DNA of 47,862 bases. Source: Candidatus Harrisonbacteria bacterium. Its GTDB lineage: Bacteria > Patescibacteriota > Minisyncoccia > UBA6257 > 02-FULL-45-10c. The stretch is from positions 80,785 to 128,646 of the forward strand of contig JACROC010000007.1 of the NCBI GenBank assembly GCA_016214655.1, read 5' to 3'. A program made the position numbers and the translations under genes. Positions within the stretch are counted from its first letter, which is position 1. Every line of letters starts with the position of its first letter. The notes beneath the pieces are model-generated. The model was not told the origin of the DNA and did not search any database. It saw nothing but the letters and a program-made list of their open reading frames with translations. Below are positions 16,131-45,292 of the stretch, in pieces.

Positions 16131-16163
16131 CTAAACCCTATACCCTAAACCCTATACCCTAAC
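16131..16163. repeat. Tandem 14-mer CTAAACCCTATACC, 2.4 copies (CTA every 7 nt, five times)
   Basis: Perfect direct repeat read from the sequence, ending 1 nt before the rpsT ATG. It gives TAA in all three plus frames and TAG in all three minus frames. Confidence 0.9.
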
Positions 16164-16164
16164 A

Positions 16165-16425
16165 ATGATCACTCAATCAGCTAAAAAAGCTTACCGCCAA
16201 AACCTCAAAAGACGCGCAGTCAATCTTAAAAGGAAAGAAGCATTGAAAAAGATTTTAAAAAACTATAAAAAACTGGTTTCCGCCGGCAAATTAGATGAGG
16301 CCAAAAAAGAACTGCCAAGTGTTTATAAAATTCTAGATAAATCAGCTAAAGTAAACCTCCTCAAAAAGAACACTGCCTCGCGGCTTAAGTCTCGCTTAAC
16401 AAAGCTTCTAGTCACTAGTCACTAG
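16165..16425 (+). CDS. rpsT: 30S ribosomal protein S20
   Basis: 86 aa. SAKKAYRQNLKRRAVNLKRK... is a typical basic helical S20 sequence. Confidence 0.9.
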   Translation: MITQSAKKAYRQNLKRRAVNLKRKEALKKILKNYKKLVSAGKLDEAKKELPSVYKILDKSAKVNLLKKNTASRLKSRLTKLLVTSH

Positions 16426-16428
16426 TCG
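16408..16428. repeat. Heptamer array CTAGTCA-CTAGTCA-CTAGTCG at the rpsT/holA convergent junction
   Basis: Three consecutive 7-mers. The rpsT stop is the TAG at 16423-16425. The holA stop is the CTA at 16429-16431. TAG/CTA fall in all three frames on both strands. Confidence 0.9.
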
Positions 16429-17238
16429 CTAATTACTCATCACTAAATCTAAAAGGGCTTCATCATACTCCAGTTTTCCCGATTTAACTGCCGCGTCATA
16501 ATCCGCAACTTTTTCTTTCCAGCCTTTGTCAGCATAAGGAGAAACCGCCATAATATTAAAAATTACAGCCGCATCTTCGCTTCTGGATAAAAGTTCTTCT
16601 AATAAAGATAGGCGCTCGCTTTTTCTGGAGGAATTCCGAATCTGATTAATTATGAAAAAAATATTTACCGGCAACGAAGCGTCTAGGTGATCTTCTAAGA
16701 TTTTTAAACTAATTTTCTTTTCATCGAGCAAAGATAATTTATCCAATTCAGTTACCAAACCCCAACCATCATTCATAAAAGCCCCCAATAACAGATCTTT
16801 GGCCGCGCTATTAAAATTTAAATCCCTTGACTTTGCTTCCCGATCAAAAAACTCACCAAGCTCTGCACCAAATAAATTTTCAAATTCCTGATGCAATGCC
16901 GGTTTTTCCAATAAAAATTTAAATTCTTTAGTTGGTTTTTTGTCTTGGCTGATTACCAAAACCTGTTCTTTAACTTTTAAATTTTCTTTTAATAACTCTA
17001 TATATTCTTTTTGTGCAGTTTTTTCCAAATTACTGCCGCCTTTAACTATTCCCAATTTAAAATTGTCAAAAAGCGATCTGGCCTTAACGAAGTCTTTTAA
17101 TTTATCCAATCCGCCGTCATCTTCTAAATTGAAATGCTCAATGGAAAAGCCGGAATGTTTTTCCTTATATTCCAAAACAATTTCCTTTAATTTTTGCTGG
17201 CGCCGATAAGAATCGGGGCCATATAAAAAAATGATCAT
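16429..17238 (-). CDS. holA: DNA polymerase III delta subunit
   Basis: The track ORF 16429-17334 overlaps the fpg 3' end. The internal ATG at 17238 gives MIIFLYGPDSYRRQQK..., the typical HolA N-terminus, and lies 7 nt after the fpg stop. Confidence 0.75.
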   Translation of the reverse strand: MIIFLYGPDSYRRQQKLKEIVLEYKEKHSGFSIEHFNLEDDGGLDKLKDFVKARSLFDNFKLGIVKGGSNLEKTAQKEYIELLKENLKVKEQVLVISQDKKPTKEFKFLLEKPALHQEFENLFGAELGEFFDREAKSRDLNFNSAAKDLLLGAFMNDGWGLVTELDKLSLLDEKKISLKILEDHLDASLPVNIFFIINQIRNSSRKSERLSLLEELLSRSEDAAVIFNIMAVSPYADKGWKEKVADYDAAVKSGKLEYDEALLDLVMSN

Positions 17239-17245
17239 AATTTTA

Positions 17246-18163
17246 TTATCTCTGGCATTTCGGACAAAAATGAGCTGATCTTCCCCCAACAGTAATTCGC
17301 TTGATTTTAACTCTACATCTCCTGCACGGTTCACCTTCGCGCTGATAAACTAAGCGCTCCTCAGTATATCCTCCTTTCTTACCAGCAGTGTCCCGATAAT
17401 CGCTGGTAGAAGTACCGCGAAGTTTTACTGCTTTACTCAAAATTTCCCGCATAGCTTTCCATAACCCATTCAGCTCCTTAATGCTTAACTTATTCGCCGA
17501 TTTAAGCGGATGAACTTTGGCCTTCCATAAAATGTCATCTGAATAAATATTACCAATACCGGCAATCACTTCCTGATCCATCAAAACTTGTTTGATCTTC
17601 CGTTTTTCATCCTTTATTAACTTTACGAACTTTATAAACTCAAAACTCTTGTCTAATGGTTCTGGCCCTAATTTTTGAAGTTCTGGCAAATTTTCAATTT
17701 GTTCCTTATTCCCCAAAATAGCTTTGCCGAATTTACGAACATCAGAATATCCCAACATTTTTCCACTATCCAAATAAAAAATTAAATGGATGTATTGATT
17801 ATATGAATCCTCCACGGCCTCTCGCGGCTCAAGTGGTATAACCATTTCTTTTCCCTTTTTACTTTCTACTTTCCACCTTCCCACAATTAGGTGTCCGGTC
17901 ATTTTCAGATGAACCAGCATCATATAACCGCCACTTAAATAAATAAGTATATTCTTGGCGCGCCTCTTTACTTCCAAAATCTTTTTATCCTTGATAACTT
18001 TTTTAAAAACCTCTACATGCTTATGCGCGACTTTATTTCTCTGCTGATCCAATGGATCTTTCAGCATCTTTGGCCAATCAAACCAAACACCAACAATCCT
18101 TCGGCCACGGACCTTTTTATTTAAATCACTTACTATTGTTTGTACCTCTGGTAACTCTGGCAT
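17246..18163 (-). CDS. mutM: Formamidopyrimidine-DNA glycosylase
   Basis: 305 aa. MPELPEVQT catalytic N-terminus, H2TH region, and C-terminal zinc finger CRRC...CPKCQ. Confidence 0.9.
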   Translation of the reverse strand: MPELPEVQTIVSDLNKKVRGRRIVGVWFDWPKMLKDPLDQQRNKVAHKHVEVFKKVIKDKKILEVKRRAKNILIYLSGGYMMLVHLKMTGHLIVGRWKVESKKGKEMVIPLEPREAVEDSYNQYIHLIFYLDSGKMLGYSDVRKFGKAILGNKEQIENLPELQKLGPEPLDKSFEFIKFVKLIKDEKRKIKQVLMDQEVIAGIGNIYSDDILWKAKVHPLKSANKLSIKELNGLWKAMREILSKAVKLRGTSTSDYRDTAGKKGGYTEERLVYQREGEPCRRCRVKIKRITVGGRSAHFCPKCQR

Positions 18164-24089: not shown

Positions 24090-24107
24090 AGATTAATAGT
24101 AAACTTA

Positions 24108-24135
24108 CTAGTCGCCAGTCGCTAGTCGCTAGTCA
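24108..24135. repeat. Heptamer array CTAGTCG-CCAGTCG-CTAGTCG-CTAGTCA
   Basis: Four consecutive 7-mers of the same unit as at 16408-16428. The tsaE stop is the CTA at 24122-24124. Confidence 0.9.
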
Positions 24136-26966: not shown

Positions 26967-27038
26967 TATGATATAATTTATATCTACACCGGCGTCTTAC
27001 CTATATTTAGCTCCATTTTTATACCAAGCGCAATAGGC

Positions 27039-27067
27039 TTGACAAACATATTTTTTTATGCTATATT
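27039..27067 (+). promoter_or_regulatory. Near-consensus sigma70-type promoter directed at the structured element downstream
   Basis: TTGACA (27039-27044), 17-nt spacer, TATATT (27062-27067), preceded by TGC (extended -10). No protein gene lies downstream on this strand. Confidence 0.5.
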
Positions 27068-27111
27068 ACTTATAACCCTAATTAGATCTTTTTTGTTCTA
27101 TTTGGGAAGAT

Positions 27112-27268
27112 AAAAAACTTTGTTCTGTGGGCGGGAATTGTCTCTAGATGGATGACTTGGCTTAGGCGGGGTCACTCCTCAGAGTAATTCTATCCTTTTC
27201 TAAAATTTATTTTAGGAAAGTTCCACTTTTCCCTTGCTCGGGAGATTGCCCACAGAACAAAGTTTTTT
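27112..27268 (+). ncRNA. Candidate structured small RNA (alternative reading: MITE-like inverted-repeat element)
   Basis: 27112-27132 (AAAAAACTTTGTTCTGTGGGC) is perfectly complementary to 27248-27268 (21/21). An internal 11-bp hairpin lies at 27195-27220. T-runs follow. A consensus promoter lies about 45 nt upstream. Both flanking genes are on the minus strand. Confidence 0.4.
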
Positions 27269-27299
27269 ATTATTTTTTAATAAGTCCAAATAGGATTTA

Positions 27300-30690: not shown

Positions 30691-30760
30691 CACAATTTAA
30701 AGCTATTTATATACTTGCCCAAAAGGTCGTGCTTGCAAACCAAATCTCTTAACTTTTAAA

Positions 30761-30919
30761 ATGGCAAAGAAAAAAAGAGATAATTTAGACGATGAGCTGG
30801 ACGGGAAACTGGATTATCCGGCCAATGAATCAGTAGATGAAGGGGGTACGGATTTACTTGAAGACGAAGAATTGTTGGATGAAGAACTAGAAGAATCGGG
30901 CGACGGAGAGGAATTTTAA
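30761..30919 (+). CDS. Possible 52-aa highly acidic small protein
   Basis: Below the ORF-track size cut-off. Hand translation: MAKKKRDNLDDELDGKLDYPANESVDEGGTDLLEDEELLDEELEESGDGEEF*. A strong terminator follows 15 nt downstream. No obvious SD. Confidence 0.35.
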   Translation: MAKKKRDNLDDELDGKLDYPANESVDEGGTDLLEDEELLDEELEESGDGEEF

Positions 30920-30934
30920 AAAATAAACAAAAGG

Positions 30935-30968
30935 CAATAGGGCTCCGCACTGCGGAGCCCTATTGTTT
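30935..30968 (+). terminator. Rho-independent terminator
   Basis: CAATAGGGCTCCGC-ACT-GCGGAGCCCTATTG (14-bp stem) followed by TTTC. Confidence 0.75.
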
Positions 30969-30997
30969 CATATAAGAGTTATAATAAGATTATTACT

Positions 30998-34622: not shown

Positions 34623-34657
34623 TTTAGTATTTATATATTTAGTTGTTGTTATAGTGT

Positions 34658-34809
34658 TGTGGATAGTGTGGATAAATAGAAAAACTACTCCTGTTTTTAA
34701 TTATTTCAAAAAGAATATTTTGTTATTAATTTAGTATTGGTTGTGGATGGATTTTGATAACAAAATATATTTTTGGAATTAATACATCTTTATTAACTTA
34801 TAATCCACA
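34658..34809. promoter_or_regulatory. DnaA-box cluster / candidate oriC segment in the dnaA-dnaN intergenic region
   Basis: Abutting boxes TGTGGATAG (34658-34666, 1 mismatch) and TGTGGATAA (34667-34675, perfect complement of TTATCCACA). Also TGTGGATGG (34742-34750, 2 mismatches) and TAATCCACA (34801-34809, 1 mismatch). AT-rich tracts lie between them. Confidence 0.6.
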
Positions 34810-34823
34810 GACTACCTGATAAT

Positions 34824-36179
34824 TTATTCTTTGTAGATGATGTCTTTGATAGCAATGACTTTTTGGTTTAAATCTTGATTTTTATTTATTTCACCGGAAA
34901 GCTTGCTATAGGCATAAATTGCCGTGGTGTGATCCCGTTTTCCTAATTTTAACCCGATATCCGGATAAGATAATCCTAAAATATCGCGAAGCAGGTACAT
35001 AGTTACTTGGCGGGGCTCTACTACGCTTTTTTGGCGGCAACGTCCGGTAAGATCGTTTGGGGAAATCTGAAAATAGTCAGCAACTGCCTTGATTACCTGA
35101 TTAGGATTGATATTTTTAGTTGGCTGCTGAATAGTCTCGTTGACTATTTCTTCTACGGCCCGGAGGGAAATGCCTGATTTTGCCTGTTGATAAAATATAA
35201 TGCGATTTAATACCCCCTCCAACTCCCGAAGATTCTTTTGGACTTTATTAGCGACAAATTCCACTATATTTTCAGGCAAATCAGCACCACGATCCTGAAT
35301 TTTGGTTCTTAGTATGGCCAAACGTAGTTCGTAGTCGGGGTACCCTATATCAGCAAGCATTCCGCCTTCAAAGCGGGAGCTCAAGCGTTCCTGCAGGGTT
35401 GGGATGAATTTAGGCGGGCGGTCCGAGGAAATAATAATTTGCTTGTTATTTTCGTATAATGCATTAAAAGTATGGAAAAATTCTTCTTCGGTAGAGGTTT
35501 TACCGCCGATAAATTGGATGTCATCGATAATAAGGACGTCAACGTTGCGGTATTTTTCTTTCATATCTTCCATCCTCTTATTTCTGATTCCGTAAATAAC
35601 ATCATTAGTAAATTTTTCAGAGGAAACATATTTTACCCGGACATTGTTGTCGTATTTCTTTTTAATCTCATTTCCGATTCCTTGGATAAGGTGGGTTTTG
35701 CCCAGCCCCACTCCGCCGTAAATGAAAAACGGATTATATTTTCTTCCAATTTCGTCAATAACCGCGCTGGCGGCGGCGAACGCCAATTCATTGGATTTGC
35801 CGACTACAAAAGAACTTAAGTTGTAACGGGGATTTAGATTGGTTTCCGGGTCGATTTTTAATTCTTCAAAAGCTAACTGGGATTTTGAAACGGTATTTGA
35901 GATTTTTTTCTTTAGATTATCAGCTGACCCCTGTTTATTGGTGACGGTGAACTCAATTTTCTTAGTAGATTCATCCAGATTCCTAAGTACGCTGAGAATT
36001 ACTTTATAATATTTATTTTCTACCCACTCTTTGGCAAAGTTATTCGGCAGGCTAACGAGCGCTATTCCGTCTTGCTTATCGATCAGGTGGCTGTTTTTCA
36101 GCCAGGTTACATAATTCGGTCTGGAAATTTGCAATTCTATTTCCGAAAGCGCGTTTTGCCAAAGTTGATCAAATTCCAT
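34824..36179 (-). CDS. dnaA: Chromosomal replication initiator protein DnaA
   Basis: 451 aa. Walker A GGVGLGKTHL, Walker B LIIDDIQF, sensor SSDRPP, and the C-terminal DNA-binding DHTTAIYA motif. Confidence 0.95.
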   Translation of the reverse strand: MEFDQLWQNALSEIELQISRPNYVTWLKNSHLIDKQDGIALVSLPNNFAKEWVENKYYKVILSVLRNLDESTKKIEFTVTNKQGSADNLKKKISNTVSKSQLAFEELKIDPETNLNPRYNLSSFVVGKSNELAFAAASAVIDEIGRKYNPFFIYGGVGLGKTHLIQGIGNEIKKKYDNNVRVKYVSSEKFTNDVIYGIRNKRMEDMKEKYRNVDVLIIDDIQFIGGKTSTEEEFFHTFNALYENNKQIIISSDRPPKFIPTLQERLSSRFEGGMLADIGYPDYELRLAILRTKIQDRGADLPENIVEFVANKVQKNLRELEGVLNRIIFYQQAKSGISLRAVEEIVNETIQQPTKNINPNQVIKAVADYFQISPNDLTGRCRQKSVVEPRQVTMYLLRDILGLSYPDIGLKLGKRDHTTAIYAYSKLSGEINKNQDLNQKVIAIKDIIYKE

Positions 36180-36370
36180 GTTTTAAAAAATTAAAAAAAT
36201 TTTGTAAATCTTTTGATTTAACCGCGATACAATTAATTTTACTGCCAGGTTACAGATAGTCAAATTACAAAAGATGAACAATCTGTGAATTTCCTGTGGA
36301 AAACTATTTTCGGAGTTTTAAAAAGCAACTATGCAGTAATTATGCGCAGAAAGAAGGCTGAGTGTCTATA

Positions 36371-36398
36371 CCCCCACACCAAAATTTTGGTATGGGGG
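36371..36398. promoter_or_regulatory. 28-bp near-perfect palindrome in the dnaA-rpmH intergenic region
   Basis: CCCCCACACCAAAA/TTTTGGTATGGGGG (13 of 14 arm positions complementary, no loop). It is a GC-rich patch in an otherwise AT-rich spacer. Confidence 0.4.
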
Positions 36399-36457
36399 CG
36401 TGGCAATTTGCATTTTTAGGCAAAAAGTTGGGAAATACAGTATAAACTTCCAATTTT

Positions 36458-36478
36458 TAATTACTAATTTCTAAAAAA
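36458..36478. repeat. Heptamer array TAATTAC-TAATTTC-TAAAAAA (left bracket of the rpmH promoter)
   Basis: TAA at 36458, 36465 and 36472 (period 7). Confidence 0.7.
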
Positions 36479-36485
36479 GTTCATC

Positions 36486-36514
36486 TTGCAAGGCTATTAA
36501 AAGTCGATTATACT
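36486..36514 (+). promoter_or_regulatory. Putative rpmH operon promoter
   Basis: TTGCAA (36486-36491), 17-nt spacer, TATACT (36509-36514), about 45 nt upstream of the rpmH ATG. Confidence 0.45.
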
Positions 36515-36520
36515 GATATA

Positions 36521-36548
36521 ATTAGAAATTAGATATTAGTCATTAGTA
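36521..36548. repeat. Heptamer array ATTAGAA-ATTAGAT-ATTAGTC-ATTAGTA (right bracket of the rpmH promoter)
   Basis: ATTAG at 36521, 36528, 36535 and 36542 (period 7). It is in inverted orientation relative to the 36458-36478 array. Confidence 0.85.
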
Positions 36549-36559
36549 ATTTTTGCAAT

Positions 36560-36694
36560 ATGTCTCAAACATATCAACCCAAAAAACGGAAAAGGGCAAG
36601 AACGCACGGATTTTTGGTCCGGAGCAGAACTCCTGGTGGGAGGCGGGTTTTAAGAGAAAGAAGGCGGAAAGGAAGGCACCGATTGTCGGTTTAA
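36560..36694 (+). CDS. rpmH: 50S ribosomal protein L34
   Basis: Below the ORF-track cut-off. Hand translation: [44 protein letters not shown] (44 aa). Canonical L34, in the canonical position upstream of rnpA. Confidence 0.95.
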
Positions 36695-36791
36695 ATCCCA
36701 AACTTTAATTTCTAAATACTAAATAATCTTAAAATTTCAATTCCTAAAATCCAAAACTTTTTAAGTTTCGGGTTTTAAATATTGGAATTTG

Positions 36792-36819
36792 TTTAGGATT
36801 TAGTGCTTAGTGATTAGAA
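36792..36819. repeat. Heptamer array TTTAGGA-TTTAGTG-CTTAGTG-ATTAGAA upstream of rnpA
   Basis: TTAG every 7 nt, four times. The 23-mer ATTGGAATTTGTTTAGGATTTAG (36781-36803) recurs with one mismatch at 44643-44665. Confidence 0.85.
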
Positions 36820-36830
36820 TTTTTTTAACT

Positions 36831-37166
36831 ATGCTCAAAAAGAAATACCGTCTTCCGATTCAAGCGATGCTTGGCAAGAAAGGCCAAACTCTCAAAACCT
36901 CTTTTTTATCGCTAAAAATTTTCCCCAGCAATCTTTCTTATTCCAGATTTGGAGCGGTGATCAGTAAAAAAGTTGCCGCTAAGGCTACGGCCAGAAATAA
37001 ATTACGCCGAATAATTTTTTCAGCCATTGAACCTTATTTCGGAGAAGAAAAAAAGTTCTTTATAGATAAAAGAGATTTTTTAGTTATTATTTATCCGGCA
37101 GTAAAAGATTTATCTAGAGAAGAAATAAAAATGCATTTGCGGGAGATTTTTGATAAGCTTAAATAA
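36831..37166 (+). CDS. rnpA: Ribonuclease P protein component
   Basis: ATG at 36831 (the track ORF starts at an upstream GTG inside the stop-rich repeat). MLKKKYRLP..., RNKLRRIIF (the RNR motif region). 111 aa. Confidence 0.85.
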   Translation: MLKKKYRLPIQAMLGKKGQTLKTSFLSLKIFPSNLSYSRFGAVISKKVAAKATARNKLRRIIFSAIEPYFGEEKKFFIDKRDFLVIIYPAVKDLSREEIKMHLREIFDKLK

Positions 37167-38716: not shown

Positions 38717-38718
38717 TT

Positions 38719-38754
38719 ATTAGTATAATTAGTATTGATTAGTATATTGGTATC
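38719..38754. repeat. Right arm of the inverted repeat bracketing the GxxExxY gene
   Basis: ATTAGTATAATTAGTATTGATTAGTATATTGGTATC. See the left arm at 38303-38338. Confidence 0.8.
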
Positions 38755-38767
38755 GATTCTAGTCTAC

Positions 38768-40727: not shown

Positions 40728-41429
40728 TTAAAACGTGGTCACAAAATAAGCCCTTTTTATTGCCGACTCAAACTCGTTAAAAAAATTTTTTATTGTTACT
40801 GATAAAACAATATCTCCATTGCCAGACGGAACCTGCGAGCCCAAATCTAAGTTTAGCGACTCTGGATTATCGGCGGAAGCGGAAATTCGTTCCCCGTTTA
40901 TTTTCCAATCAAAAGATAATTCACTGGAATTAGCTGCGTTAAAAAAATAAGGGAGAGCGGTAAGGGTATGCTTCCCGAATTTAATTTTTTTGTTTAATAA
41001 TTTGCTTTCAATCATTATTTCCGGACGAAGGGATGGGATTATTACGCTACTCGTTAGATTTTGCTCCTTGTAATCTAAGACGGTTATCCGTACGGCTTGT
41101 TCTTGGCTGCCACTATTAAAACGGGCAGTTTTTAATCCTATTCCGGAAGTCAAAAACTTCCCGTTTAATTCCCAGCTAATCTCGCTTTTGGATAAGTTAA
41201 TTACTTTACCATTATCAATTACGTCAAACCCGACTTCTACCGGGGTATTATTGGTGGGAAAAATTTTTCCTTGGTAGCCAGCTGGCACATAGCTTAGGGC
41301 TTTCCAGGAAATCAAAAGCTGCGGCGTGGTTTGGGCAAAAGCATTATCAATAATTAGTAAATAGTAAATAGTAACTAGGAACAGTATTTTAATAATCGCA
41401 TTTATATTTTTATAATTTATAATTACCAT
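40728..41429 (-). CDS. Secreted hypothetical protein with two tandem beta-sandwich-like repeats
   Basis: 233 aa. Signal peptide ending AFA-Q. Internal duplication (SEISWELNGKFL... versus SELSFDWKINGERI...). Confidence 0.5.
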   Translation of the reverse strand: MVIINYKNINAIIKILFLVTIYYLLIIDNAFAQTTPQLLISWKALSYVPAGYQGKIFPTNNTPVEVGFDVIDNGKVINLSKSEISWELNGKFLTSGIGLKTARFNSGSQEQAVRITVLDYKEQNLTSSVIIPSLRPEIMIESKLLNKKIKFGKHTLTALPYFFNAANSSELSFDWKINGERISASADNPESLNLDLGSQVPSGNGDIVLSVTIKNFFNEFESAIKRAYFVTTF

Positions 41430-44220: not shown

Positions 44221-44254
44221 AAACCCTAAATTCTAATATCTAAACTCTAAACAA
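44221..44254. repeat. Left arm (CTAA heptamer array) of the inverted repeat bracketing the four-helix-bundle gene
   Basis: AAACCCTAAATTCTAATATCTAAACTCTAAACAA has CTAA at 44226, 44233, 44240 and 44247. It matches the reverse complement of 44651-44684 at 29 of 34 positions. Confidence 0.85.
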
Positions 44255-44284
44255 TTATAAAATTCCAATTATCAAATTTAGAAA

Positions 44285-44644
44285 CTATTTTGACCCTTCT
44301 ACTATCGACCCGAAAATTTTCGTAAGCTCTCCAGATTCTTTGATTAAATATTCTCTTTCTGATTCAGATTCCGTTTTGGGGGCGCTAAGTTTTAACCACA
44401 AGCAGCTCTCTTTCGATTCTTTTCGGCATATTTTTATTCTTATAACGAAATCTTTTTTACTAAGCGCCTCGTTAGCTTCTATATAATTAGCGGCAACCGA
44501 ACCCGAGGACCGAACTAATTGTTTTCCGTTCTCTATGTTGGTAATTATTTTAGGTAAACTATTGACGTACCCATTTACCCTTTTCGCGAAATTAAAAGTT
44601 CTTTCTTCTAGATCATATTTTTTTGTATTTGGAGATTGGTCCAT
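44285..44644 (-). CDS. Four-helix-bundle protein (TIGR02436 / 23S rRNA intervening-sequence protein family)
   Basis: 119 aa. FNFAKRVNGYVNSLPK...QLVRSSGSVAANYIEANEA.SKKDF..KI.ICRKESKES..WL is the typical family pattern. Confidence 0.8.
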   Translation of the reverse strand: MDQSPNTKKYDLEERTFNFAKRVNGYVNSLPKIITNIENGKQLVRSSGSVAANYIEANEALSKKDFVIRIKICRKESKESCLWLKLSAPKTESESEREYLIKESGELTKIFGSIVEGSK

Positions 44645-44650
44645 TGGAGT

Positions 44651-44684
44651 TTGTTTAGGATTTAGAAATTAGGATTTAGAGTTT
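44651..44684. repeat. Right arm (TTAG heptamer array) of the inverted repeat bracketing the four-helix-bundle gene
   Basis: TTGTTTAGGATTTAGAAATTAGGATTTAGAGTTT has TTAG at 44655, 44662, 44669 and 44676. Confidence 0.85.
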
Positions 44685-45196
44685 TAACGGTAATCTACTC
44701 TCCGGGCCACTTCTCTTTCCCCGGTTATTTTTCTCATCATTTCAAAGCGTTCCTTGCTGCTTACGGCCCTGTCCAGGATGGCTGGTTCTATGGACTTTTC
44801 TCTTTTAGGAAGCGGTTTGCGGCTGGTTTTAAGCTGTTCCCATAGATCATTCAATCTAGACTTGGCGGGAGAAATTCCGGATTCCGGCAATTTGATTTGC
44901 GGAATTTTTTCAGATGCAATCTTACTCTGCCAGAGATAAAAATGCGGCTTAAGGTAAAAATTAAGAGCTGAAAAAGCAATGGTGGTAAATGATTGGCCGT
45001 TAATTTTAATAAATGCAAAAGAGGCGGCAATTATTCCCAGGAAAAGAGTGATAATCAGCCAAAGTATAAATTGCAAAAAGAAAAATAAAGCGAAACTTAT
45101 GCCTCCGGCCACGGCCAGAAATAAAAATTGCTTGATGGTCAGCGGACCAACAATTTTGTCTTCGGTTTCTATAAATTGTGGAACTTGAAAATTCAT
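44684..45196 (-). CDS. PrgI-family (VirB3-like) membrane protein
   Basis: 170 aa. The N-terminus VPQFIETEDKIVGPLTIKQFLFLAVAGGISFALFFF followed by a second TM helix is the PrgI-family pattern. Confidence 0.7.
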   Translation of the reverse strand: MNFQVPQFIETEDKIVGPLTIKQFLFLAVAGGISFALFFFLQFILWLIITLFLGIIAASFAFIKINGQSFTTIAFSALNFYLKPHFYLWQSKIASEKIPQIKLPESGISPAKSRLNDLWEQLKTSRKPLPKREKSIEPAILDRAVSSKERFEMMRKITGEREVARRVDYR

Positions 45197-45211
45197 ACGC
45201 TTACGCTTATC

Positions 45212-45288
45212 CGATACGAAACTACAAATTGATGCGAATCTACAAATGATTTATTCGTTGATTCGGATGTATTCGTAGTTTTGGATCG
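45212..45288. repeat. Long imperfect hairpin (cargo-less inverted repeat) between the PrgI-like and proline-rich genes
   Basis: Hand pairing of 45212-45249 with 45251-45288 gives 29 Watson-Crick plus 2 G-U pairs out of 38 positions. ATACGAA/TTCGTAT-type units are as in the GxxExxY flanks. Confidence 0.7.
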
Positions 45289-45292
45289 CTGT

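Follow-up and report, generated by a model that had tools for sequence, protein, structure and literature searches.

Heptanucleotide direct repeats in a patescibacterial genome and a four-helix-bundle gene cassette with heptamer arrays as inverted arms

Direct repeats with a unit of seven nucleotides (nt) have been described in several groups of bacteria. Here we report on repeats of this period in a 47,862-nt stretch of contig JACROC010000007.1 from Candidatus Harrisonbacteria bacterium; this whole stretch is called the window below. Short arrays of 7-nt units lie there at gene junctions, in leaders and within genes, and two such arrays form the inverted arms of a cassette with a gene for a four-helix-bundle protein (S23p, alias 23S rRNA intervening-sequence protein).

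TAACTGA direct repeats are known from Beggiatoaceae, Cyanobacteria and Bacteroidetes (MacGregor 2015, PMC4679880), and the arrays of the window share the following properties with them. The TAACTGA repeats are exact 7-nt tandem units in 2-6 copies, mainly intergenic, and mostly positioned a few nt 5' of starts without a Shine-Dalgarno (SD) sequence, those of ribosomal protein genes included. Some overlap the stop codon of the upstream gene (the stops in three frames were already noted), some run in frame within open reading frames (ORFs) in reverse orientation, and close relatives have shorter spacers free of repeats. For the TAACTGA repeats themselves, indels of 7 nt between strains are also on record. 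MacGregor proposed S1, Csp or CsrA as a post-transcriptional regulator and noted that CspB binds one heptamer per protein (PMC4679880). Searching the paper's text for 'four helix' and 'S23' produced no match, and no link to four-helix-bundle proteins is reported in it.

The GGGAATC heptamers of Xanthomonas and the GGGGAYT heptamers of Nostoc (Rehm 2015, PMC4692102) are likewise comparable. They are intergenic and occur singly or in inverted pairs 0-50 bp from starts or stops; their positions are kept between species, and their length and sequence vary. As cited in PMC4692102, Mrazek 2007 reported seven as the sole over-represented period among long simple sequence repeats, along with the idea of polymerase slippage, and Mazel 1990 described the cyanobacterial short tandemly repeated repetitive (STRR) sequences.

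A third system is the S23p intervening sequence (IVS) of 23S rRNA in Coxiella and Leptospira (PMC4990558). It is ~430-460 nt long and has an ORF of the same family as the gene in the window (PF05635/TIGR02436), terminal inverted repeats around the ORF, and tandem heptamers directly 5' of a start with a poor or absent SD. The heptamers of the Coxiella IVS vary in copy number between strains and lie inside the inverted repeats, which RNase III cuts to excise the IVS (PMC4990558). Finally, MITEs (miniature transposable elements with inverted repeats) and repetitive extragenic palindromic (REP)-type sequences are also short intergenic inverted-repeat elements with ORF-less copies and with presence or absence between relatives.

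The arrays of the window consist of 7-nt units placed head to tail, show an excess of period 7, lie near starts and stops without SD and form dispersed families. They belong to a known class, the prokaryotic intergenic heptanucleotide direct repeats (TAACTGA-type, STRR, Xanthomonas GGGAATC); the statement of the original prediction that no natural element of this design had been described does not hold in view of PMC4679880 and PMC4692102. The window differs from the TAACTGA case in its units (CTAAAYC, CTAGTCR, AATTAGA), in its patescibacterial host and in its many inverted pairs. The Xanthomonas and Nostoc units are G-rich and quadruplex-capable, whereas those of the window are AT-rich and stop-rich. 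We found no earlier report of heptamer direct repeats in Patescibacteria in the searchable literature. What is new is the use of TTTAGGA/CTAAATC arrays as the inverted arms of a 463-bp four-helix-bundle cassette, an architecture present in several phyla. Overall, we explain the arrays, with moderate confidence, as this lineage's version of the intergenic heptanucleotide direct repeats, one family of which makes up the cassette arms.

The excess of period 7 was evaluated with a simple lag-match score for periods 4-15 (run threshold >=12) against 30 dinucleotide-preserving shuffles. Four period-7 runs of the window reached a score of at least 12, compared to none in the shuffles; apart from 14 (2 x 7), no other period gave such a run. 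The 21 related loci (320 kb; loci are referred to by L numbers) contained 34 period-7 arrays, with at most 5 arrays of any other period except 14, and further loci of the candidate phyla radiation (CPR; 103 kb) contained 12, with at most 4 for other periods. In the window and relatives pooled (367 kb), half of the 46 period-7 arrays were intergenic (23, in 9% of the DNA) and half coding (23), which makes the intergenic density ~10 times the coding one.

All nine array positions of the original prediction were confirmed, most of them also by Tandem Repeats Finder (TRF). The arrays hold 3.4-4.7 copies at an 84-100% match (TRF and our own scan), and those at 36458-36478, 36521-36548, 36792-36819, 44226-44250 and 44655-44679 each have 3-4.6 units of period 7. 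Families of units are genome-specific yet recur at unlinked sites of one genome: 20% of unit pairs agree within one mismatch within a genome compared to 7% between genomes (permutation p = 0.0005). The arrays do form a dispersed family in strict 7-nt phase. A 23-mer said to recur with one mismatch does so, as a part of a 66-nt direct repeat (36758-36823 and 44620-44685, 71% identity). Besides gene junctions, arrays also run in frame within genes and lie in divergent promoters; the phenomenon is lineage-wide and extends beyond gene boundaries in the window and the 21 related loci. Coding arrays at 41351-41382 and 17848-17881 had been missed, as had the left arms at 36445-36474 and 36700-36759, the partners of listed right arms. 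Between species we observed gain and loss of arrays as well as concerted change of units. Rfam has no family matching the arrays or palindromes. Avoidance of CTAG was considered as an explanation and rejected: CTAG is undepleted in the window, with 74 occurrences observed and 75 expected.

The cassette occupies 44221-44683 (463 bp) and has three parts.

44221..44254, + strand: cassette arm, 3' of the four-helix-bundle gene (in the orientation of that gene), with the TraC-like ATG following after ~12 nt.
44285..44644, - strand: four-helix-bundle protein gene (S23p, alias 23S rRNA intervening-sequence protein; PF05635, TIGR02436, PDB 2RLD).
44651..44684, + strand: second cassette arm, directly 5' of the four-helix-bundle ATG and abutting the PrgI-like stop.

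The gene product scored 40.4 bits for PF05635 (cut-off 33.8) and 58.2 bits for TIGR02436 (cut-off 24), and matched PDB 2RLD with E = 4e-9. The 34-nt arms are 396 nt apart and 85% complementary, with a duplex energy of -32.7 kcal/mol. The cassette lies between the PrgI-like and TraC-like genes, and the window has no rRNA. In the three closest relatives for which the PrgI|TraC-like region was retrievable (L156, L157 and L158, DnaA 80-85% identical), this junction is empty and 17-41 nt long. L154, a genome further removed from the window, carries a cassette there.

Homologs of the four-helix-bundle protein (65-74% identity) are very abundant in CPR, with more than 8000 at E < 1e-10. We inspected nine of them, each with different neighbours, for example gyrA|SBP, pilin-like|ligA, release factor|glycosyltransferase and NADH dehydrogenase|glutamate synthase, and all showed the same plan. 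On the 5' side, three to five CTAAANN units close in (C)TAAACAA and are followed after ~5 nt by the ATG and the ORF; on the 3' side, the stop is followed after 20-35 nt by TTGTTTAGRATTTAG and then by more TTAGRAT units. The arm duplexes have a mean of ~-27 kcal/mol, compared to -14 +/- 3.8 for shuffled arms. In 492 kb of CPR loci we counted 30 occurrences of the arm motif, each of them at a four-helix-bundle gene or in an ORF-less inverted pair. The motif (TTGTTTAGGATTTAG...) was also seen on 10 IMG/VR viral contigs (L172-L181) without a four-helix-bundle ORF, on some of them as a tight inverted pair.

Compared with the S23p IVS, the cassette has the PF05635/TIGR02436 ORF and the paired terminal inverted repeats; it lies between PrgI-like and TraC-like genes of a type IV secretion-like operon and not in helix 25 or 45 of 23S rRNA, and its arms are themselves heptamer arrays. 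It thus resembles the S23p intervening sequences but misses their defining rRNA location. By analogy with them, RNase III probably cuts the cassette arms once they have paired in the transcript. Compared with MITEs and REP-type palindromes, the arms consist of phased 7-nt units; no transposase was present in the window, and no clear target-site duplication was seen in a comparison with the empty PrgI|TraC-like sites.

The same architecture was found in other phyla. A tblastn search of plasmids with the four-helix-bundle protein produced 13 records, mostly from filamentous cyanobacteria, and in Cyanobacteria, Chloroflexota and Bacteroidota the homologs were flanked by inverted heptamer arrays of unrelated units, as follows.

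Nostoc flagelliforme and Aulosira laxa: upstream AATTCAA x4-5, downstream TTGAATT x4-5.
Anabaena cylindrica and Nostoc sp. TCL26-01: upstream AAGTAAA, downstream CTTTTTA.
Planktothrix agardhii: upstream AATCCCC x6 then AATCGTA x4, downstream CGATTTA-type.
Ca. Chlorohelix (Chloroflexota): upstream ATGAAGG..., downstream TCATAAT...
Chondrinema (Bacteroidota): TAACTGA-type units both upstream and downstream.

A period-7 run at <=130 nt was present upstream in 12/18 cassettes and downstream in 12/18, compared to 31/389 and 26/389 control genes (Fisher test, 5e-9 upstream and 9e-10 downstream), the controls being 389 CPR genes only, with the background density in other phyla not fully controlled. 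The lag-7 excess in the cassette flanks was 0.17 upstream and 0.155 downstream, and 0.019 and 0.005 in the controls (Mann-Whitney, 3e-7 and 6e-11). This statistic was used in place of strict automated calling of inverted related units, which succeeded for only 4/18 cassettes because the arrays are degenerate. Fifty kb of a Nostoc plasmid contained 8 period-7 arrays, two of which were the pair around its single four-helix-bundle gene. Within the limited literature covered, no paper ties the four-helix-bundle family to heptamer repeats generally. As a separate observation, cas2 and cas1 flank the gene in the plasmids of Anabaena and Nostoc TCL26-01, and in L161, L162 and L163 (Anabaena, Nostoc and Pseudanabaena plasmids) the four-helix-bundle gene with its arrays stands between or beside cas2/cas1.

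We distinguished four kinds of placement. Arrays form promoter-proximal, G-poor, SD-less leaders 5' of starts (rpsT, rpmH, the four-helix-bundle gene, the TraC-like gene and a glycoside-hydrolase-like gene); they lie at the 3' ends of genes, whose ORFs extend into the array and end at a stop there (rpsT/holA, tsaE); they form inverted pairs and long hairpins (rpmH-rnpA and dnaA-rpmH spacers); and they run in frame within protein loops and a signal peptide. The arrays of the first, second and fourth kinds around rpsT, holA, tsaE and within coding regions are as follows.

16131..16163, + strand: CTAAACC/CTATACC array, 14-mer x2.3, overlapping the promoter spacer, the -10 element and the short SD-less rpsT leader.
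16408..16449, + strand: CTAGTCA array, 3 perfect and 3 degenerate units, across the convergent rpsT/holA ends.
17848..17881, - strand: degenerate in-frame heptamer array within fpg, in the variable loop after GKW.
24103..24135, + strand: CTAGTCG array, x3.9 at 24108-24134 with one unit being CCAGTCG, and with the tsaE stop inside.
41351..41382, - strand: in-frame array TAAATAG x4 (sense CTATTTA), in the signal-peptide hydrophobic core LVTIYYLLII.

The perfect 14-mer repeat (x2.3) noticed earlier at 16131-16162 was found as described and is at the same time a period-7 array x4.6. Its end is 2 nt away from the rpsT ATG (16165), and no SD is present. A TTGAC-N17(18)-TAnnnT promoter upstream of rpsT is common to 11 relatives and stands back to back with a divergent TTGACA promoter, the latter also found by a consensus scan; the array begins in the promoter spacer and provides the -10-like TACCCT. 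The CTAAACC/CTATAMC 14-mer at rpsT is common to the window, L001, L003 and L011. At the same place L002 has CTATACC changed to CTATACG in every copy, a concerted change, and more distant relatives have one single unit.

The unit CCCTAAA of the rpsT array equals the plant- and algal-type telomere repeat. A metagenome scan with CTAAACCCTATACCCTAAACC produced mostly long (CCCTAAA)n arrays (loci L022-L141), which, because of this identity with the plant-type unit, are taken to be eukaryotic telomere-type repeats. Useful loci from the scan were L041, L106 and L118, along with inverted pairs in higher-GC bacteria. Automated screens could mistake the CCCTAAA arrays of CPR for eukaryotic contamination.

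At the rpsT/holA junction, CTAGTCA x3.4 (16408-16431) is continued by degenerate CTAATTA CTCATCA CTAAATC up to 16449. As had been predicted, both stops lie in the array 3 nt apart (rpsT TAG 16423-16425; holA, complement of 16429-16431), and both ORFs read into it, with tails ...LVTSH* and ...VMSN*. At this junction L009 has a related array, CTAGTCG CTAATCG CTATATT; in other relatives the gene ends overlap or a hairpin terminator is present. The rpsT/holA array folds no better than shuffles (z -1.2). The third stop attributed to an array, that of tsaE, is also where it was claimed (complement of 24122-24124), and ~20 nt separate this array from the ATG of the - strand gene that comes next (glycoside-hydrolase-like), which it precedes.

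Arrays in the Fpg loop were found in the window, L002 (TGGAAAG x3), L013 (GTCAGGT x5) and L008. The variable loop of TsaE has in-frame arrays in L004 (AAAAGTC x4.4, translated as KSQKSKVKSQ) and L013 (ATCAAGC x6.4), and likewise in L003, L008, L009 and L020. Many arrays of relatives stop 4-20 nt before an SD-less ATG, such as those of fpg (L016, L017), holA (L008) and groEL (metagenomic L041).

Three further elements flank rpmH.

36445..36474, + strand: ATTTTTA ATTACTA ATTTCTA array, left arm of an inverted pair bracketing the rpmH promoter.
36520..36551, + strand: AATTAGA array x4.6, right arm of the same pair, filling the rpmH leader from the -10 element to ATG 36560.
36700..36826, + strand: ORF-less palindrome with a run of seven T, filling the rpmH-rnpA spacer.

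The dnaA-rpmH pair has arms at 36428-36474 and 36522-36568 (70% complementary) around the promoter TTGCAA-17-TATACT at 36486-36514, and it folds no better than shuffles (z -1.5). In the closest relative, L159 (DnaA 92% identical), the rpmH leader is array-free, with the ATG 7 nt past the -10 element, and an AATTTCT array stands beside the dnaA start, where the window has none. The dnaA-rpmH spacer also has a GC-rich hairpin (CCCCCACACCAAAATTTTGGTATGGGGG) at 36361-36398, which is kept in L159 with an altered loop and stem (…AAAATTTGGTGTGGGGG) and absent in L156 and L158.

The 60-nt arms of the rpmH-rnpA palindrome (36700-36759, CTAAA type; 36763-36822, TTTAG type) are 70% complementary and fold with dG -33.7 kcal/mol (z -5.3); seven T and then the rnpA ATG at 36832 follow. 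A consensus terminator scan left the palindrome uncalled because its stem is AT-rich. Among the relatives, L156 and L159 have short spacers of 13 and 21 nt, respectively, both without an array; L158 has a different inverted heptamer pair and L157 a CGACTAG-like stretch. Under the explanation that we prefer, the palindrome is a derivative of the cassette minus the ORF, and with its seven T it probably attenuates read-through into rnpA.

The explanation that we prefer, the lineage's version of heptanucleotide direct repeats with a cassette-arm family, would work as follows. The 7-nt units would arise and change in copy number by a strongly 7-nt-biased process, for which slipped-strand mispairing is the usual proposal, and arrays would persist where they are tolerated or useful. 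The CTAAAYC/TTTAGRR family forms the conserved inverted arms of the four-helix-bundle (S23p, TIGR02436) cassette. Selection on stops would plausibly act as a filter only: arrays with stops would be excluded from genes, and arrays at gene ends would be harmless under 7-nt changes. Some arrays may function as leaders or promoters.

Several observations weigh against this explanation. The arrays are imperfect, with a conserved core and 2 variable positions per unit, a pattern more in keeping with selection on a phased motif than with slippage in the recent past. The rpsT array of the window is identical to that of L001 at 31/31 nt, while identity at the four-fold sites (uvrB, fpg) is down to 0.41-0.43; identity despite such saturation shows that at least this array is constrained in sequence and more than tolerated. 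The one groundwater run with this genome holds it at 3-5x and as contigs only, a depth too low to show copy-number steps of 7 nt within a population. Units with a stop on both strands make up 20/46 of coding and intergenic arrays pooled, compared to 0.22 for random intergenic heptamers (p = 9e-4). For the cassette arms, RNAalifold found only one compensatory pair, and own and cross-cassette arm pairings are equally stable; the conservation is therefore at the level of the arm sequence, with an RNA stem possible. Finally, RNase III cleavage, termination at the palindrome and the leader function are all steps that we infer.

Alternatively, the arrays may be sites for a trans-acting factor, a reading that we regard as possible though doubtful and that is compatible with the preferred one. 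A protein binding single-stranded DNA or RNA, with one subunit per 7 nt, would control how SD-less mRNAs are translated or how stable they are; the pentameric four-helix-bundle protein, itself encoded between arrays, is the obvious candidate. The number of units (3.4-4.7), the conserved core with two free positions per unit and the purifying constraint on the rpsT array are consistent with such sites, as are the many arrays that end 2-20 nt before an SD-less ATG (rpsT, rpmH, groEL in L041, fpg in L016/L017). Four-helix-bundle genes are array-flanked in CPR, Cyanobacteria, Chloroflexota and Bacteroidota (12/18 on each side), the closest structure 2RLD has five chains, and S23p is reported to be a homopentamer (PMC4990558). 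A heptamer-binding regulator was also proposed for the TAACTGA repeats (PMC4679880). On the other hand, the loci read contain far more arrays than four-helix-bundle genes. The CTAGTCR and coding arrays do not resemble the cassette arms, the wide variation of units between genomes would require co-evolution of specificity, and S23p is probably unexpressed in Coxiella (PMC4990558).

It is less likely that all arrays are footprints of a mobile element, i.e., ends or remnants of the four-helix-bundle cassette and of its MITE-like ORF-less copies. Such an origin would account for the presence or absence of the cassette among relatives, for arms conserved in ten contexts, for the 66-nt repeat that the ORF-less rpmH-rnpA palindrome shares with a cassette arm, and for the arm motif on the 10 viral contigs without an ORF. 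It is at odds with the lack of a transposase and of clear target-site duplications. Moreover, the CTAGTCR, rpsT promoter and coding arrays have a different unit and no inverted partner, the rpsT array is at a conserved position in at least 4 species, and the L154 cassette at the same PrgI|TraC junction makes vertical inheritance followed by loss possible. Of the roles suggested by the original prediction, mobile-element footprints and a protein- or RNA-binding repeat both have support for a subset of the arrays.

We consider it very improbable that the arrays are stop-codon insulators, selected to end translation in six frames between tightly packed genes, which was the purpose first suggested for them. 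The arithmetic of that suggestion is correct: since 7 = 1 mod 3, three units cover the three frames, and CTAA, CTAG and TTAG give stops on both strands. Blocking of all six frames was observed for 7/9 arrays, those at 24108 and 36458 blocking five frames each, compared to only 0-1% of other intergenic windows of 21-33 nt. Two arrays provide the stops of three genes, and stop-bearing units are enriched among the intergenic arrays, with a stop on at least one strand in 26/26 (0.60 for random intergenic heptamers) and on both strands in 16/26 (0.22; p = 1.6e-5). However, stops in every frame follow arithmetically from 7 = 1 mod 3 and the CTAR/YTAG core, and are thus a by-product of the two. Arrays with stops are found at gene boundaries because they cannot lie inside a gene on the same strand. 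The enrichment itself is in part a sorting artefact, because a stop-less array beside a gene gets absorbed into the ORF, and ORF-based sorting thereby biases the intergenic class toward stop-bearing units; homologous arrays are also non-independent.

A designed insulator fails because arrays of the same period run in frame within genes (Fpg, TsaE and the signal peptide) with no stops on the coding strand, because the arrays at 16131, 36458 and 36521 lie in divergent promoter regions and leaders where no ORF needs a stop, and because close relatives have, at the same junctions, array-free spacers of 13-21 nt or ordinary hairpin terminators. In addition, many heptamer families of other phyla (AAGTAAA, AATCCCC) are stop-less on one strand. 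Chance clustering, which might appeal to the AT-rich intergenic DNA where TAA and TAG are common, is refuted by the absence of period-7 runs in the 30 shuffles, by the lack of any other enriched period and by the recurrence of the same unit families in relatives.

The window has a GC content of ~40% and is ~92% coding. Its Fpg shares 84% identity with the Fpg of Ca. Paceibacter sp. DYGE01; for Ca. Harrisonbacteria metagenome-assembled genomes the figure is 76-80%. These identities indicate a patescibacterial (CPR) host genome close to Ca. Paceibacter/Harrisonbacteria. Gene names given earlier hold, i.e., rpsT (PF01649), holA (TIGR01128, 85 bits vs cut-off 80) and tsaE (PF02367), with the correction that rnpA starts at ATG 36832 and not at GTG 36810. 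The listed holA ORF (16429-17334) begins at a GTG and overlaps fpg (17246-18163) by 89 nt; the true holA start is probably ~90 nt downstream, because homology to relatives and TIGR01128 begins only at about residue 31-34.

The replication origin region is inside the window. GC skew flips sign at ~30-36 kb, and the gene order is dnaN and dnaA (34824-36179, - strand), rpmH (36560, + strand), rnpA (36832) and yidC, with a type IV secretion-like cluster (PrgI-like, TraC-like and VirB4-like genes) beyond yidC. The dnaA-dnaN spacer (34623-34823) has a cluster of DnaA-box-like 9-mers (TGTGGATAG, TGTGGATAA, TTGTGGATGG, TAATCCACAG) as well as an inverted repeat of 30 nt (34700-34729, 34754-34783); with the skew switch, these make the spacer the likely oriC.

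Some other spacers were of interest. In the 333-nt spacer 26967-27299, the two copies of a perfect inverted repeat of 23 nt (27110-27132, 27248-27270) stand 115 nt apart; the spacer resembles a structured non-coding RNA or element, for which Rfam gave zero matches at the gathering threshold. An 18-nt unit occurs four times 5' of the PrgI-like gene (45197-45292), twice direct and twice inverted (GATACGAAACTACAAATT, GATGTATTCGTAGATTCG), and might serve the secretion cluster as an operator or iteron-like site. The convergent spacer 38717-38767 contains ATTAGTAT repeats of period 9-10 (18), the sole intergenic tandem repeat of the window with a period other than 7. A small ORF in the 307-nt 'spacer' 30691-30997 encodes a very acidic peptide (MAKKKRDNLDDELDGKLDYPANESVDEGGTDLLEDEELLDEELEESGDGEEF) and is followed by a hairpin terminator.

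Heptamer direct repeats, which entered the literature in 1990 with the STRR, still await an explanation. In genomes as small as this, the arrays take a large share of scarce non-coding DNA, including ribosomal protein leaders and the origin region. They also enter conserved housekeeping proteins in frame and are therefore a source of variation in loops and signal peptides.

We know of no role for the four-helix-bundle family outside diversity-generating retroelements. Its genes stand between inverted 7-nt arrays in Patescibacteria, Cyanobacteria, Chloroflexota and Bacteroidota, where the unit varies and the period is always 7; according to the literature, the S23p gene of the Coxiella IVS is likewise accompanied by heptamer arrays (PMC4990558). 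As a tentative proposal, the S23p/TIGR02436 four-helix-bundle proteins may be the missing partner of the prokaryotic heptamer repeats. Each subunit of the pentamer might bind one of the phased heptamers in RNA or single-stranded DNA, with the dispersed solo arrays and hairpins as genomic targets; or else the cassette might be a vehicle that seeds and spreads heptamer arrays. Either mechanism, if true, would explain the role of the STRR/TAACTGA-type repeats as well as that of the abundant stand-alone four-helix-bundle genes. The cross-phylum association thus offers a concrete, testable candidate for the factor or vehicle behind heptamer repeats and points to a possible function of a protein family with over 8000 close homologs.

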